From IMG/VR virus record IMGVR_UViG_3300045988_112031, positions 1 through 33,445 of that record: DNA of 33,445 nt; one strand, written 5' to 3'. Shown here piece by piece: positions 30,247 through 33,146 of this stretch. The notes beneath the pieces are model-generated. The model made no database searches. It was not told where the DNA came from and saw only the letters and a list, made by a program, of their open reading frames with translations. The first letter of the stretch is position 1; every line of letters begins with the position of its first letter. This stretch comes from a virus (Duplodnaviria > Heunggongvirae > Uroviricota > Caudoviricetes). The position numbers and the translations under genes were made by a program.

Positions 30247-30609
30247 ATGGCTAGCGAACGCAGTACTGATGTGCAGGCATTTATCGGGGAGCTGGACGGC
30301 GGCGTATTTGAAACCAAAATCGGCGCTGTTCTCAGTGAAGTCGCTTCCGGTGTGATGAACACGAAAACCAAAGGTAAGGTCTCGCTCAACCTGGAAATCG
30401 AACCGTTTGATGAGAACCGTGTGAAAATCAAACACAAACTCTCATATGTTCGCCCGACTAACCGCGGGAAAATTTCTGAAGAAGACACCACCGAAACGCC
30501 GATGTATGTCAATCGCGGTGGTCGCCTGACTATTCTGCAGGAAGACCAGGGACAATTACTGACTCTTGCCGGTGAACCTGACGGAAAACTCCGCGCAGCA
30601 GGTCATTAA
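30247..30609 (+). CDS. YfdP-like hypothetical protein
   Basis: Track ORF 29929-30609 trimmed to the ATG preceded by GAGGAG (8-nt spacing); about 120 aa, similar size to CPS-53 YfdP and directly upstream of the yfdQ-like gene; the upstream part of the track ORF is GC-rich structured DNA. Confidence 0.45.
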   Translation: MASERSTDVQAFIGELDGGVFETKIGAVLSEVASGVMNTKTKGKVSLNLEIEPFDENRVKIKHKLSYVRPTNRGKISEEDTTETPMYVNRGGRLTILQEDQGQLLTLAGEPDGKLRAAGH

Positions 30610-30674
30610 TATCGTTCTTAATTAACTGATTATTTATCTCATCACTGAATATCTTTATATAGTGAGGACTTATT

Positions 30675-31499
30675 ATGTCTCAGAACTTAGACGCAACCGC
30701 AATTAATCAAATCCATGCTCTTATTTCTGCTCAGGGTGTTAATGAAATTATCAGTAAGATTGGTGCCGATGCTGTGGCATTGCCTGAGAATTTCCGCATT
30801 CATGATCTGGAAAAATTTAATTTAAATCGCTTCCGTTTCCGTGGCGCGCTTTCCACTGCCAGCATCGATGATTTTACCCGTTATTCTAAAGATCTTGCAG
30901 ATGAAGGCACCCGCTGCTTTATCGATGCTGATAATATGCGTGCCGTCAGTGTGCTTAACCTGGGTACTATTGATGAACCAGGTCACGCAGATAACACCGC
31001 CACTCTCAAACTGAAAAAGACAGCACCGTTCTCTGCTCTGCTGTCTGTTAACGGCGAGCGTAACTCCCAGAAGTCACTGGCAGAATGGATTGAAGACTGG
31101 GCCGACTACCTTGTGGGTTTTGATGCTAATGGTGACGCCATTCAGGCAACCAAAGCGGCGGCGGCTATCCGTAAAATCACAATTGAAGCGAACCAGACCG
31201 CTGATTTTGAAGATAATGACTTCAGCGGCAAACGCTCCCTGATGGAGTCTGTCGAAGCGAAGACCAAAGACATTATGCCAGTGGTATTTGAATTTAAATG
31301 CGTTCCATTTGAAGGCCTGAAAGAACGTCCGTTTAAATTACGACTCAGCATTATCACTGGCGATCGTCCTGTACTGGTTCTGCGCATTATTCAGCTGGAA
31401 GCGGTGCAGGAAGAAATGGCTAACGAATTTCGTGATCTGCTTGTTGAGAAATTCAAAGACAGCAAAGTAGAAACCTTTATTGGTACTTTCACCGCCTGA
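30675..31499 (+). CDS. yfdQ: YfdQ-like protein (DUF2303)
   Basis: 274 aa, identical length to E. coli CPS-53 YfdQ and followed by a yfdR-like gene; identification from recalled synteny and length, not a database search. Confidence 0.55.
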
Positions 31500-31627
31500 T
31501 TTCATTACTGCAAATGCCCCTGCGGGGGCATTTATGGAAACGTAATTAACTCAATAATCACCGGATGGTGAGAGCTTCCTTTTAGCAGAATTCAACGCGG
31601 TGCAGCGCATATAAAGTGGAGAACGAA

Positions 31628-32164
31628 ATGTCATTTATTAAAACTTTTTCCGGGAAGCATTTTTATTATGACAAGATAAATAAAGACGACATCGTGATTA
31701 ACGATATCGCAGTTTCCCTTTCAAATATCTGTCGCTTTGCAGGACATCTTTCACACTTCTACAGTGTCGCCCAGCATGCGGTGCTTTGCAGCCAGTTGGT
31801 GCCGCAGGAATTTGCTTTTGAAGCGTTAATGCATGATGCAACAGAAGCATATTGCCAGGACATCCCCGCACCACTGAAACGCCTTCTTCCTGACTATAAA
31901 CGGATGGAAGAAAAAATAGACGCCGTAATCCGTGAGAAATACGGATTACCTCCTGTTATGAGCACGCCAGTGAAATATGCCGATCTCATTATGCTGGCAA
32001 CCGAACGCCGCGATCTCGGGCTTGATGATGGCTCTTTCTGGCCTGTACTGGAAGGTATCCCGGCAACAGAGATGTTCAAAGTGATTCCACTGTCGCCAGG
32101 CCATGCCTACGGGATGTTTATGGAACGTTTTAACGAGTTATCGGAGTTACGCAAATGCGCATGA
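31628..32164 (+). CDS. yfdR: HD-domain 5'-deoxynucleotidase (YfdR-like)
   Basis: Track ORF 31616-32164; start at the second ATG (GGAG 8 nt upstream) gives 178 aa, the YfdR length, beginning MSFIKTFSGKHFYYDK; H..HD-type metal-binding residues (..AQHAVLCSQ..LMHDATEAYCQD..). Confidence 0.65.
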   Translation: MSFIKTFSGKHFYYDKINKDDIVINDIAVSLSNICRFAGHLSHFYSVAQHAVLCSQLVPQEFAFEALMHDATEAYCQDIPAPLKRLLPDYKRMEEKIDAVIREKYGLPPVMSTPVKYADLIMLATERRDLGLDDGSFWPVLEGIPATEMFKVIPLSPGHAYGMFMERFNELSELRKCA

Positions 32165-32505
32165 ATGTTTTCGAAATGGAAGGGTTTCTTCGCGGGAAAT
32201 GTGTACCACGAGATCTGAAAGTGAATGAAACAAATGCTGAGTATCTGGTGCGTAAATTCGATGAAGTACGTGCTGAGGCTCGCAACGAGGGTATTAACTA
32301 TACCGCAAGCCGCCTTGCTGCTGCGTTCAATCACGGATTTATCAATAAGTCTTTACGTGAAGTTTTCGACGTTACACGCATGATTCTGTCAGCGAAAGAA
32401 GAGTTGGCTAATGAACCGCATCCGATTGATGGCCTGTCTGGTGAATATGCGGAGAAATCCCTTGAAGAATGGGCGGAACAGATTCGCAAAGGAGGCAGCC
32501 AGTGA
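32155..32505 (+). CDS. YfdS-like hypothetical protein
   Basis: 116 aa; overlaps the yfdR-like stop; acidic, helical; by synteny with the CPS-53 yfdPQRS cluster. Confidence 0.45.
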   Translation: MRMNVFEMEGFLRGKCVPRDLKVNETNAEYLVRKFDEVRAEARNEGINYTASRLAAAFNHGFINKSLREVFDVTRMILSAKEELANEPHPIDGLSGEYAEKSLEEWAEQIRKGGSQ

Positions 32506-33146
32506 ATAACCGCTTTTACATGATGTGCTTGCGTGAAACTGTGGGTAATAACGCCTCATTCCATTGCCATAACGGCAATGGTTACAGTTCTGATATCGAT
32601 CGCGCTCATGTTTACACGCTGGAAGAAGCCCAAAAAGCCTGGAATTGTGGGCGAGATATCGATCAGCCTGTTTGTGCCGATAGTGTGGATGCAATGGCTG
32701 TGTGGCACGTTGATTGCCAGTACATCCCTACAGAAAGCCTGATTGGGTCAGATTGCACTGCGTATGTGGCCTACAAAAAAGGTAGCTGGAACGGCAACGA
32801 TGTTTACTGGCTTCAACACGGTGGATTGCCAACAGATGACTTCAGTAAAGCGACCATCTTTAGCGTCGCCAACAAAAACGAACCAGGAATAGTTTGGTTG
32901 CCATTTTCCATTGCTGATGCAGCAAAGCGCCGGACGTTCAATATCAATAACTTTAACCGCAGAACAATGGTTCAGGGCACAGGTTTGGTCATGCCTGACT
33001 GGTTGAAAAAGCAGAACAGAAGAAAGAAGTCGCGAAGCGGGAAGGTGCGTTGGAATTGTCCGCATTGCGGAAAAATTACCTGGCAGTACAGCCCATATGA
33101 TTTTGAAGGCTGTAGTGATTACAACTGTGAAGGATGGCGAGAATGA
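32502..33146 (+). CDS. hypothetical protein with C-terminal zinc-ribbon (CPHC..C..C)
   Basis: Track ORF 32469-33146; preferred GTG start with AGGAGG 6 nt upstream, overlapping the preceding stop (GTGA); Cys/His-rich throughout. Confidence 0.45.
   Translation: MNNRFYMMCLRETVGNNASFHCHNGNGYSSDIDRAHVYTLEEAQKAWNCGRDIDQPVCADSVDAMAVWHVDCQYIPTESLIGSDCTAYVAYKKGSWNGNDVYWLQHGGLPTDDFSKATIFSVANKNEPGIVWLPFSIADAAKRRTFNINNFNRRTMVQGTGLVMPDWLKKQNRRKKSRSGKVRWNCPHCGKITWQYSPYDFEGCSDYNCEGWRE

Follow-up and report, generated by a model that had tools for sequence, protein, structure and literature searches.

The yfdP-yfdQ-yfdR module and two cargo genes in a predicted early-left operon of a lambdoid phage

Gene content and control region of the operon

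The window (the whole stretch of viral DNA that was analysed, 33,445 nt) holds five plus-strand open reading frames between positions 30247 and 33146, and ORF calls place all of them at the coordinates where the earlier note had described five plus-strand genes downstream of pL. The gene boundaries are also identical to those in the RefSeq annotation of a 97.3%-identical prophage in E. coli O157:H7 NE122. In order, the genes are yfdP (30247–30609; 120 aa, Pfam PF27127 YfdP), yfdQ (30675–31499; 274 aa, DUF2303), yfdR (31628–32164; 178 aa, an HD-domain phosphohydrolase annotated as a 5'-deoxynucleotidase), gene 4 (32155–32505; 116 aa, in which a YfdS N-terminus of 42 residues is joined to an Ead/Ea22-type C-terminal domain), and gene 5 (32502–33146; 214 aa, GTG start, phrog_2457, with a C-terminal CxxC-x14-C-x4-C motif). 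They are followed on the same strand by the N-terminal part of an Ead/Ea22-like gene that is cut by the window end (33143–33445; Pfam PF13935, E = 5.7e-22). The start of yfdR is placed at the ATG at 31628, which is preceded by GGAG, instead of the GTG at 31616 where the listed ORF begins.

The tight translational coupling proposed for the whole cluster was found at the last three junctions, where stop and start codons overlap (yfdR/gene 4, ATGA at 32161–32164, or 10 nt if the ATG at 32155 is used; gene 4/gene 5, GTGA at 32502–32505; gene 5/ead, ATGA at 33143–33146), but not at the first two, which are gaps of 65 nt (yfdP/yfdQ) and 128 nt (yfdQ/yfdR). The longer gap contains a GC-rich 9-bp hairpin on the plus strand, read directly from the sequence and lacking a U-tract (31512–31533; AAAUGCCCC-UGCG-GGGGCAUUU). 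Judged from these junctions, translational coupling would begin at yfdR and extend through genes 4 and 5 into ead, and would not hold P, Q, and R together.

Upstream of the five genes lie the cI repressor gene (28483–29136, with a hairpin and T-run at its end, 29136) and a predicted pL-like sigma-70 promoter on the plus strand (29223–29252; consensus match, TTGACA-18-TACATT), which is overlapped by an operator-like inverted repeat (29199–29216 / 29234–29251). A pR-like site on the minus strand (28448–28419) possesses hexamers identical to those of the pL-like site, and similarity between the two regions is 91%. An operator-flanked promoter that adjoins cI and is directed away from cro is the arrangement expected of a lambdoid early-left (pL) operon, to which the cluster is assigned on these predicted elements. 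In the window, the pR operon has one O-like gene for replication and lacks a helicase loader. Overall, nothing in the window itself is unusual.

A structured leader RNA related to STnc100 was predicted on the plus strand at 29897–30112. The Rfam match (RF02076; 39.5 bits, E = 7e-7) extends over the full model length and falls below the gathering score of 47 bits, which leaves the leader outside formal membership of the family. A multi-hairpin domain (29920–30046) is closed by GUUGUGGUG/CACCACAAC, and the 3' part consists of a terminator-like hairpin (30063–30103) followed by a U-tract (30104–30109). The closing helix is kept in three E. coli alleles and in an allele from Klebsiella, which differ in their interior hairpins, and none of the other leader alleles returned an Rfam match at E ≤ 0.1. 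Directly 5' of the yfdP ribosome-binding site is a long conserved plus-strand hairpin (30110–30198) with a 20-bp basal stem (30110–30129 / 30179–30198). This stem is kept in seven sequences from six genera. A count in an anchored register, used in place of MAFFT/RNAalifold, which misaligned the stem arms, gave two or more standard pair types with changes in both bases at 11 of the 20 positions. An HK022 put-type antiterminator was rejected as the identity of the pL-proximal RNA: the putL region has no visible sequence similarity to it, and the pR side holds no second copy. A put-like function would still be conceivable.

Protein families encoded by the cluster

The family assignments held when checked by BLAST and HMM searches. 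YfdP is similar to K-12 YfdP over its full length (119 of 120 residues identical, 99%), and its placement in PF27127 follows precomputed assignments on homologues. The AF2 model of YfdP, one long helix and three long strands, gave no informative match in a fold search. YfdQ is the DUF2303 protein recognised in the earlier note (PF10065, E = 1.7e-92; 309.9 bits compared to a cut-off of 26.6; profile positions 2–269 of 269) and is 99% identical to K-12 YfdQ and 98.5% identical to SfV YfdQ. YfdQ is an acidic protein with a pI of 5.0 and a net charge of −10; YfdP, too, is mildly acidic. In fold libraries with releases to April 2026, which did not include PDB 9o7m, the search with YfdQ returned nothing beyond a 63-residue subdomain match. 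PDB 9o7m (‘YfdQ Protein’) is a solved YfdQ homologue (E = 2e-45) with 36 chains in one entry, and its sequence is 87–93% identical to IMG/VR contigs resembling Xanthomonas phages. It had no match in species-representative genomes, and a literature search found no paper carrying the code. No PDB chain matched the YfdP profile or the neighbouring 470-aa Xanthomonas phage protein.

YfdR is identical to K-12 YfdR at 175 of 178 residues (98%; phrog_318, E = 4e-110), with the three substitutions (positions 151, 155, and 169) located outside the HD motif. The residues of the HD phosphohydrolase superfamily motif, on which the enzymatic proposal had been made to depend, are all present on alignment (H50, H69-D70, E73, D78, and D119). 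Both YfbR, the chromosomal dCMP phosphohydrolase of E. coli, and Atu1052 (PDB 2gz4) align to these residues, except that H50 aligns only to the VAQH histidine of Atu1052; in YfbR, which has the HD fold in common, the counterparts of the HD dyad, E73, D78, and D119 are H68-D69, E72, D77, and D137. YfbR is only 26% identical to YfdR, however, and YfdR scores under the cut-offs of the YfbR-type 5'-deoxynucleotidase families (Pfam PF12917, 24.3 compared to 25.9; NCBIfam NF003009, 19.9 compared to 122), so it would be classed as a YfdR-type HD protein and not as a YfbR orthologue. The label of HD-domain 5'-deoxynucleotidase was upheld for the HD domain and the K-12 YfdR relationship, but not for the YfbR-type family. 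Phage T5 Dmp was tried as a YfdR homologue and rejected (best BLASTP E = 3.5).

Gene 4 aligns with YfdS only over residues 1–42 (88%), has no Pfam match to DUF551, and is no full-length YfdS. Over its last 80 aa it is 94% identical to the C-terminal end of an Ead/Ea22-like protein from Stx phage P13374. Gene 4 is a chimera of a YfdS N-terminus and an Ea22-type C-terminal domain. Naming the cluster yfdP/Q/R/S-like was correct for P, Q, and R, but of YfdS only the 42 residues in gene 4 remain. Gene 5, compared to K-12 YfdT, gave a BLASTP E-value of 20 and is no YfdT. It is the protein first read as a zinc ribbon, and its four cysteines (C186, C189, C204, and C209) are invariant in 28 homologues of 40–79% identity, with a spacing (C186-x2-C189 … C204-x4-C209) that predicts a C-terminal zinc ribbon.

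Distribution and known relatives

Of 5426 complete E. coli genomes, 3238 carry part of the cluster and 12 carry all five genes together; part of the cluster was also found in 165 phage records, Stx phages and mEp460 among them. Among 66 E. coli viral loci, P-Q-R was present in every one, the C-terminus of gene 4 in six, and gene 5 in one. Mosaic breakpoints fall within gene 4 (after about residue 36–42) and at the gene 4/gene 5 junction. Genes 4 and 5 are interchangeable cargo outside the core mechanism, and gene 5 is rare. YfdP was found in 180 phage records and YfdQ in 184, with a nearly equal taxon breakdown, and yfdP is directly 5' of yfdQ in 12 of 12 diverse loci, Xanthomonas and Vibrio phages included. 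In many phages the pair is found without any HD gene. The obligate core across distant phages is the adjacent YfdP-YfdQ pair, with the HD gene added only in enterobacterial prophages. YfdR-like HD proteins, for their part, were found in 333 phage records. Among these are virulent Bacillus, Caulobacter, Rhizobium, and jumbo phages without YfdP/Q.

The yfdP-T region of the E. coli K-12 prophage CPS-53 (KpLE1) encodes P, Q, and R at 99%, 99%, and 98% identity, equal in order, spacing, and lengths, and further shares with the window the overlap between yfdR and the next gene and the first 42 residues of that gene. The two loci then part. YfdS of CPS-53 ends in a DUF551 domain whereas gene 4 ends in an Ea22-type domain, the position of YfdT is occupied in the window by an unrelated 214-aa cysteine-motif protein, and CPS-53 has lost cI, pL, and the entire structured leader. 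The triad also occurs in SfV (orf29–31), mEp460 (gp33–35), ST64B (gp35–37), and LLS (gp37–39), where, as here, it is promoter-proximal in the early-left operon, adjoins a cI/S24 repressor, and accompanies a single O-like replication gene; compared to the window, only the genes 3' of yfdR and small insertions between cI and yfdP vary. The yfdP-yfdQ-yfdR cluster has been noted as a frequent constituent of early-left operons (PMC12315714). P-Q-R is an early module that has been described before and that most E. coli genomes carry, which makes the finding largely ordinary and already known. Annotated by name in thousands of genomes, the subject of a dedicated paper, and noted in recent comparative work, the module leaves little for the submitted finding to add. 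A separate proposal, that P-Q-R is a stand-in for a missing recombination module, was rejected given the co-occurrence of the pair with gam/RecT/exo/SSB and the literature against it (PMC12315714).

Candidate roles of the module

Establishing what the module does would be of value for the biology of prophage induction, as it is found in Shiga-toxin phages and most E. coli genomes; the points of interest are the action of YfdP-YfdQ, DnaA binding by YfdR compared to nucleotide hydrolysis, and leader control of the module. Though the earlier note had called these genes of unknown role, the cluster has been studied both genetically and biochemically in K-12 (PMC4776307). In that work YfdR bound domain I of DnaA and had nucleotide affinities much below those of YfbR and weak nucleotidase activity. 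Only in multicopy did yfdQ, yfdR, and yfdS/T stop oriC initiation, an effect that required yfdS or yfdT, but deletion of yfdQRST left initiation unaffected and the authors allow for an overexpression artefact. YfdQ was absent from DnaA or YfdR pull-downs, and deletion of yfdQ was reported to increase MMS and H2O2 sensitivity (PMC4776307).

On balance, we lean towards the locus being the known P-Q-R early-left-operon module of SfV/mEp460-type lambdoid prophages, accompanied by two cargo genes and acting to damp host initiation. Upon prophage induction, pL transcription of the module would pass through the structured leader with its terminator-like hairpin, and the module may damp host chromosome initiation in lytic growth. 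Damped initiation would favour the replication of a phage whose own equipment is limited to an O-like initiator, without a helicase loader, and YfdP-YfdQ could assist DNA replication or repair as an oligomer. Lambda P and B. subtilis SirA also bind DnaA and block host initiation, as reported for YfdR, and SirA uses the residue equivalent to DnaA Phe46 (PMC4776307). Both are unrelated to YfdR in sequence and fold. Lambda P engages domain III of DnaA and has DnaB loading as a further activity, one without a known counterpart in YfdR. Against the damping of host replication, the window has no intact yfdS or yfdT, though the K-12 effect needed one or the other. Further, because the P-Q pair is often found without an HD gene, its main function could be independent of YfdR and DnaA.

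That YfdP-YfdQ instead assists phage recombination or DNA repair as an accessory, for example by modulating an SSB, a recombinase, a host nuclease, or the processing of damaged DNA, with the link to YfdR incidental, is possible but somewhat unlikely. The pair directly follows gam-like, RecT, exo, and SSB genes in Stx2a phage P13374 and the Abc2 anti-RecBCD gene in a Salmonella prophage, stands one gene ahead of SSB in Vibrio phage VvAW1, and in Xanthomonas phage Soumapaz has recombinase, exonuclease, and SSB genes 2–4 kb 3' of it, and the MMS and H2O2 sensitivity of the K-12 yfdQ deletion points the same way. The acidity of YfdQ and YfdP is, however, atypical of DNA-binding proteins, the fold search gave no similarity to SSAPs, Ku/Gam, or nucleases, and unrecognised recombination proteins have been considered unlikely since the genes turn up whether or not a full Rec module is present (PMC12315714). 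We regard as unlikely the proposal that YfdR is mainly an enzyme, dephosphorylating dNMPs or another nucleotide and so reshaping lytic pools or destroying a defence signal. The intact metal-binding and catalytic residues and the annotation of K-12 YfdR as a 5'-deoxynucleotidase agree with it, and YfdR homologues in many virulent and jumbo phages, where YfdP/Q are missing, fit better with a self-contained enzymatic role in nucleotide metabolism. The early product Dmp of phage T5, annotated with the same reaction, increases virulence and is toxic via pool imbalance, and shows that phages profit from dNMP dephosphorylation, but it comes from a virulent phage that degrades host DNA and its sequence similarity to YfdR is undetectable. 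The sub-threshold scores of YfdR in the YfbR-like and 5'-deoxynucleotidase families speak against an enzyme of this type, a PADLOC-DB search gave zero matches among the five proteins and two leader ORFs, and a literature search found no paper tying YfdR to defence. No evidence ties the cluster to defence or counter-defence, and the suggestion in the earlier note of an HD enzyme that alters dNMP pools or blunts nucleotide-based defence was not sustained in view of this PADLOC result, the weak nucleotide affinity in K-12, and the documented DnaA interaction.

A more far-reaching and quite doubtful reading holds that YfdP-YfdQ is an obligate two-protein early-phage module forming a large homo-oligomer, an unrecognised system of host takeover or DNA metabolism independent of the HD enzyme. 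Its folds would be unlike any in the libraries searched, and in enterobacterial prophages a conserved and undescribed leader RNA, made up of an STnc100-like domain, a terminator, and the 20-bp stem, would gate its expression. Very improbable is the reading put forward in the earlier note, in which the five genes work together as a single translationally coupled unit; their common strand and the stop/start overlaps at three junctions speak for it. It is largely refuted by the distribution of genes 4 and 5, so rarely found with P-Q-R, and the breakpoints inside gene 4 and at the gene 4/gene 5 junction, together with the P/Q and Q/R spacers, also stand against it. P-Q-R is the invariant part, followed by a chimera in gene 4 and rare cargo in gene 5.

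Gene content and transcriptional setting

The five consecutive plus-strand genes proposed at 30247–33146 are real, and their RefSeq boundaries are exactly the same in L001, the 97.3%-identical prophage of E. coli O157:H7 NE122. Gene 1 (30247–30609, 120 aa; AGGAG 7 nt 5′ of the ATG), gene 2 (30675–31499, 274 aa), and gene 3 (31628–32164, 178 aa; GGAG before the ATG) share 99%, 99%, and 98% identity with YfdP, YfdQ, and YfdR of K-12, respectively, and the presence of a DUF2303 protein was confirmed for gene 2 (E = 1.7e-92). The yfdP, yfdQ, and yfdR labels of the earlier note therefore apply to these three genes, but for gene 4 (32155–32505, 116 aa) the similarity to YfdS is confined to residues 1–42 (88%), the conserved YfdS N-terminal module that overlaps the end of yfdR. 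As the last 80 residues share 94% identity with the C-terminal end of an Ead/Ea22-like protein from Stx2a phage P13374, and match PHROGs common to Ea22-type proteins, gene 4 is, judging from these alignments, a chimera of a YfdS N-terminal module and an Ea22-type C-terminal domain with a mosaic breakpoint within the gene.

Gene 5 (32502–33146, 214 aa; AGGAGG before the GTG start) was assigned to phrog_2457. An identity as YfdT was ruled out, the two being unrelated in sequence, and searches of Pfam, NCBIfam, and PDB returned zero matches; its homologues, from Enterobacterales, Acinetobacter, and others, are hypothetical proteins. Four cysteines (C186, C189, C204, and C209) are invariant in 28 homologues, supporting its description as a zinc-ribbon protein. 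The window edge truncates a sixth plus-strand gene, an Ead/Ea22-like one beginning at 33143.

Upstream of the cluster are an S24/HTH cI-type repressor gene (28483–29136, +), a divergent cro-like gene (28190–28387, −), and a CII-like gene. A consensus scan identified a promoter-like site in the pL position (TTGACA-18-TACATT; 29223–29252, +), flanked by an 18-nt inverted repeat, and a site with identical hexamers in the pR position (28448–28419, −). Given the repressor gene, the cro-like gene, and both sites, the cluster is correctly placed downstream of pL, to the extent that a consensus scan can tell. Overall, the earlier note labelled the cluster mostly correctly, and what it described is a prophage module that is very common and already known, together with mosaic cargo.

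A constant YfdP-YfdQ pair and a variable tail

When the 2.9-kb cluster sequence was compared to 5426 complete E. coli genomes, some part of it occurred in 3238, and at least 80% of it in only 12. Matches broke off at one of two query positions: 2017, which is window 32263 and lies inside gene 4, or 2259, which is window 32505, where gene 4 ends. Of the 66 E. coli viral contigs whose downstream sequence was long enough, all 66 encoded YfdP, YfdQ, and YfdR, and 52 encoded the N-terminal module (42 residues) of gene 4, compared to six contigs for the gene 4 C-terminus and one for gene 5; the K-12 YfdS C-terminus (n = 40) and YfdT (n = 25) were also found. On this distribution the five genes are not one unit, contrary to the proposal that they work as such. 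The tight stop/start overlaps cited in its favour are real among yfdR, gene 4, gene 5, and ead only, with gaps of 65 nt between yfdP and yfdQ and 128 nt between yfdQ and yfdR. In the latter spacer sits a GC-rich hairpin of 9 bp that lacks a U-tract (31512–31533); it might serve as an element for processing or stability, or as a weak terminator dividing yfdP-yfdQ from yfdR.

The YfdP-YfdQ pair is obligate and the downstream tail is variable. In the phage collection, YfdP occurred in 180 and YfdQ in 184 records with nearly identical taxon breakdowns, and in 12 of 12 diverse loci the gene immediately before the DUF2303 gene encoded YfdP (38–74% identity). YfdP homologues occupied the same position in Xanthomonas phage Soumapaz and Vibrio phage VvAW1 (hhalign probability, 99.2% and 99.8%, respectively). 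Only in cI-proximal modules of enterobacteria (Klebsiella, Mangrovibacter, Serratia, and Gibbsiella) was the pair followed by YfdR, which was absent from the next position in Stx2a phage P13374, two Salmonella prophages, and the Xanthomonas and Vibrio phages. The conserved core is the pair, not the YfdP-YfdQ-YfdR triad. YfdR-like HD proteins have a quite different and broader distribution than YfdP-YfdQ, with 333 phage records that include many virulent or jumbo phages of Bacillus, Caulobacter, and Rhizobium.

AlphaFold2 models of both proteins were of moderate quality. In the YfdP model (pLDDT 79.6) a single long helix accompanies three long strands, and the tail is disordered yet conserved; the YfdQ model (pLDDT 77.8) has a helix at its N-terminus, a linker that is disordered, and alpha/beta domains. 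A search with the two models among the solved structures of the fold libraries gave zero informative matches. By sequence, the acidic YfdQ (pI 5.0, net charge −10) matched PDB 9o7m, ‘YfdQ Protein’ (E = 2.3e-45), whose single entry contains 36 chains of 274 residues, suggesting that YfdQ forms a large assembly. The 9o7m sequence is 87–93% identical to proteins on two viral contigs, one of these proteins being itself ~85–87% identical to Xanthomonas phage proteins, and its nearest relatives are thus proteins of Xanthomonas phages; a literature search returned zero papers for the entry.

A structured leader between pL and yfdP

Downstream of pL, yfdP is preceded by a non-coding and highly structured leader (z = −4.25 for 29905–30260). 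On the plus strand it consists of a multi-hairpin domain closed by GUUGUGGUG/CACCACAAC (domain 1; 29920–30046), a terminator-like hairpin (30063–30103), followed by a U-tract, whose 5′ half is DicF-like with weak Rfam matches, a long hairpin with a 20-bp basal stem (30110–30129 / 30179–30198) that starts at the U-tract, a small GC hairpin, and a Shine-Dalgarno sequence. Domain 1, part of the region 29897–30112 (+) that also takes in the terminator-like hairpin, scored 39.5 bits against Rfam STnc100, short of the 47-bit threshold (E = 7e-7). Among three E. coli alleles and one Klebsiella allele, the closing helix, first hairpin, and architecture of domain 1 are kept and the interior sequence is unrelated. 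In L001, the predicted pL start is only a few bases from the beginning of domain 1. An antitermination role for this domain may be envisaged. In K-12 the structured leader has been lost.

The yfdP ribosome-binding site is immediately preceded by the long hairpin (30110–30198), which matched no Rfam family. Its 20-bp stem is retained across six genera, in seven sequences (the window, L001, and five other compared loci), and 11 of the 20 stem positions display at least two standard pair types differing on both sides. RNase III cleaves stems of such length, and the hairpin might be acted on by RNase III or control translation.

A 713-bp segment of the window (29349–30061) replaces 60 bp of the otherwise 97–99% identical L001. 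The segment carries two convergent, overlapping small ORFs (phrog_3195, 29370–29645, +; phrog_3311, 29563–29808, −) and brings a complete second allele of domain 1, leaving a truncated first copy at 29258–29348. The truncated and complete copies are marked by a 20-nt direct repeat (29258–29277 / 29914–29933), and the segment looks like a moron-type insertion via recombination between leader alleles.

Possible roles of the module

Multicopy yfdQRST was isolated as a suppressor of hda-185, which required yfdQ, yfdR, and either yfdS or yfdT, with yfdP dispensable (Noguchi and Katayama 2016; PMC4776307). Multicopy supply inhibited initiation at oriC, including in wild-type cells, and YfdR bound DnaA domain I, though YfdQ, YfdS, and YfdT co-purified with neither DnaA nor YfdR, gene deletion left initiation unaffected, and the authors cautioned that the effect could be an overexpression artefact (PMC4776307). 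The replication module of the window appears to be a single O-like initiator gene (25456–26382, −), and zero lambda P, DnaC or DnaB-type helicases or helicase loaders were found in the pR operon; phage LLS likewise has a single O-like replication gene and no helicase loader (PMC12315714). In the favoured reading, the YfdP-YfdQ-YfdR module would damp host initiation after induction, to the benefit of such a phage, with YfdP-YfdQ acting as an oligomeric helper in DNA replication or repair. The combination of the gene identities, host-initiation damping, and this helper role is considered slightly better than an even proposition, its uncertainty residing mostly in the physiological role and not in gene identity.

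Two further explanations are compatible with each other and with host-initiation damping. The pair may be a recombination or repair accessory, as it repeatedly adjoins recombination and SSB genes or an Abc2 anti-RecBCD gene, and deletion of yfdQ raises sensitivity to MMS and H2O2 (other work, as cited in PMC4776307). A 2025 comparative paper reported that early-left operons fairly often carry the HD/yfdQ/yfdP cluster, whether or not they have a canonical recombination module, and regarded yfdQ and yfdP as without known function and the genes as unlikely to be unrecognised recombination proteins (PMC12315714). An accessory role is judged rather unlikely. An enzymatic nucleotide role for YfdR would be in keeping with its catalytic residues, all of which are present on alignment: H69-D70, E73, D78, and D119 align with YfbR H68-D69, E72, D77, and D137, and H50 with the corresponding histidine of Atu1052 (PDB 2gz4). 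YfdR was rejected as a YfbR orthologue (26% identity, with scores under both curated cut-offs). The enzymatic role is viewed as unlikely, slightly more so than the accessory role. L001 also carries, at its positions 10514–11740 and past the point where the window ends, a dGTP triphosphohydrolase-family gene between the excisionase-like and integrase genes; its operon direction matches that of the HD nucleotidase.

The suggestion that the HD enzyme reshapes nucleotide pools or counters defence is possible but unsupported, since a PADLOC search gave zero matches, a literature search found zero links of the module to defence or counter-defence, and the functional precedent, the T5 dNMP phosphatase Dmp, which enhances virulence and is toxic via pool imbalance, was rejected as a YfdR homologue.

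Elsewhere in the window, a Q-like gene was located at 21730–22482 and no N-like antiterminator was seen. In the pR operon, Rfam matches above threshold to C4 antisense RNA (26991–27078, −) and isrK (27103–27179, −) occur just upstream of a Rha/Ant-like regulator gene (26379–27233), an arrangement that resembles an anti-repressor control module of the P1/P7 c4-ant or Gifsy-1 isrK type; the RNA pair is also present in L001 and mEp460. Three low-GC islands (~5000–6500, 18000–19000, and 20500–21500; 0.39–0.42 compared to ~0.52–0.58 in their surroundings) sit in the minus-strand structural and late region and may be moron or cargo genes.
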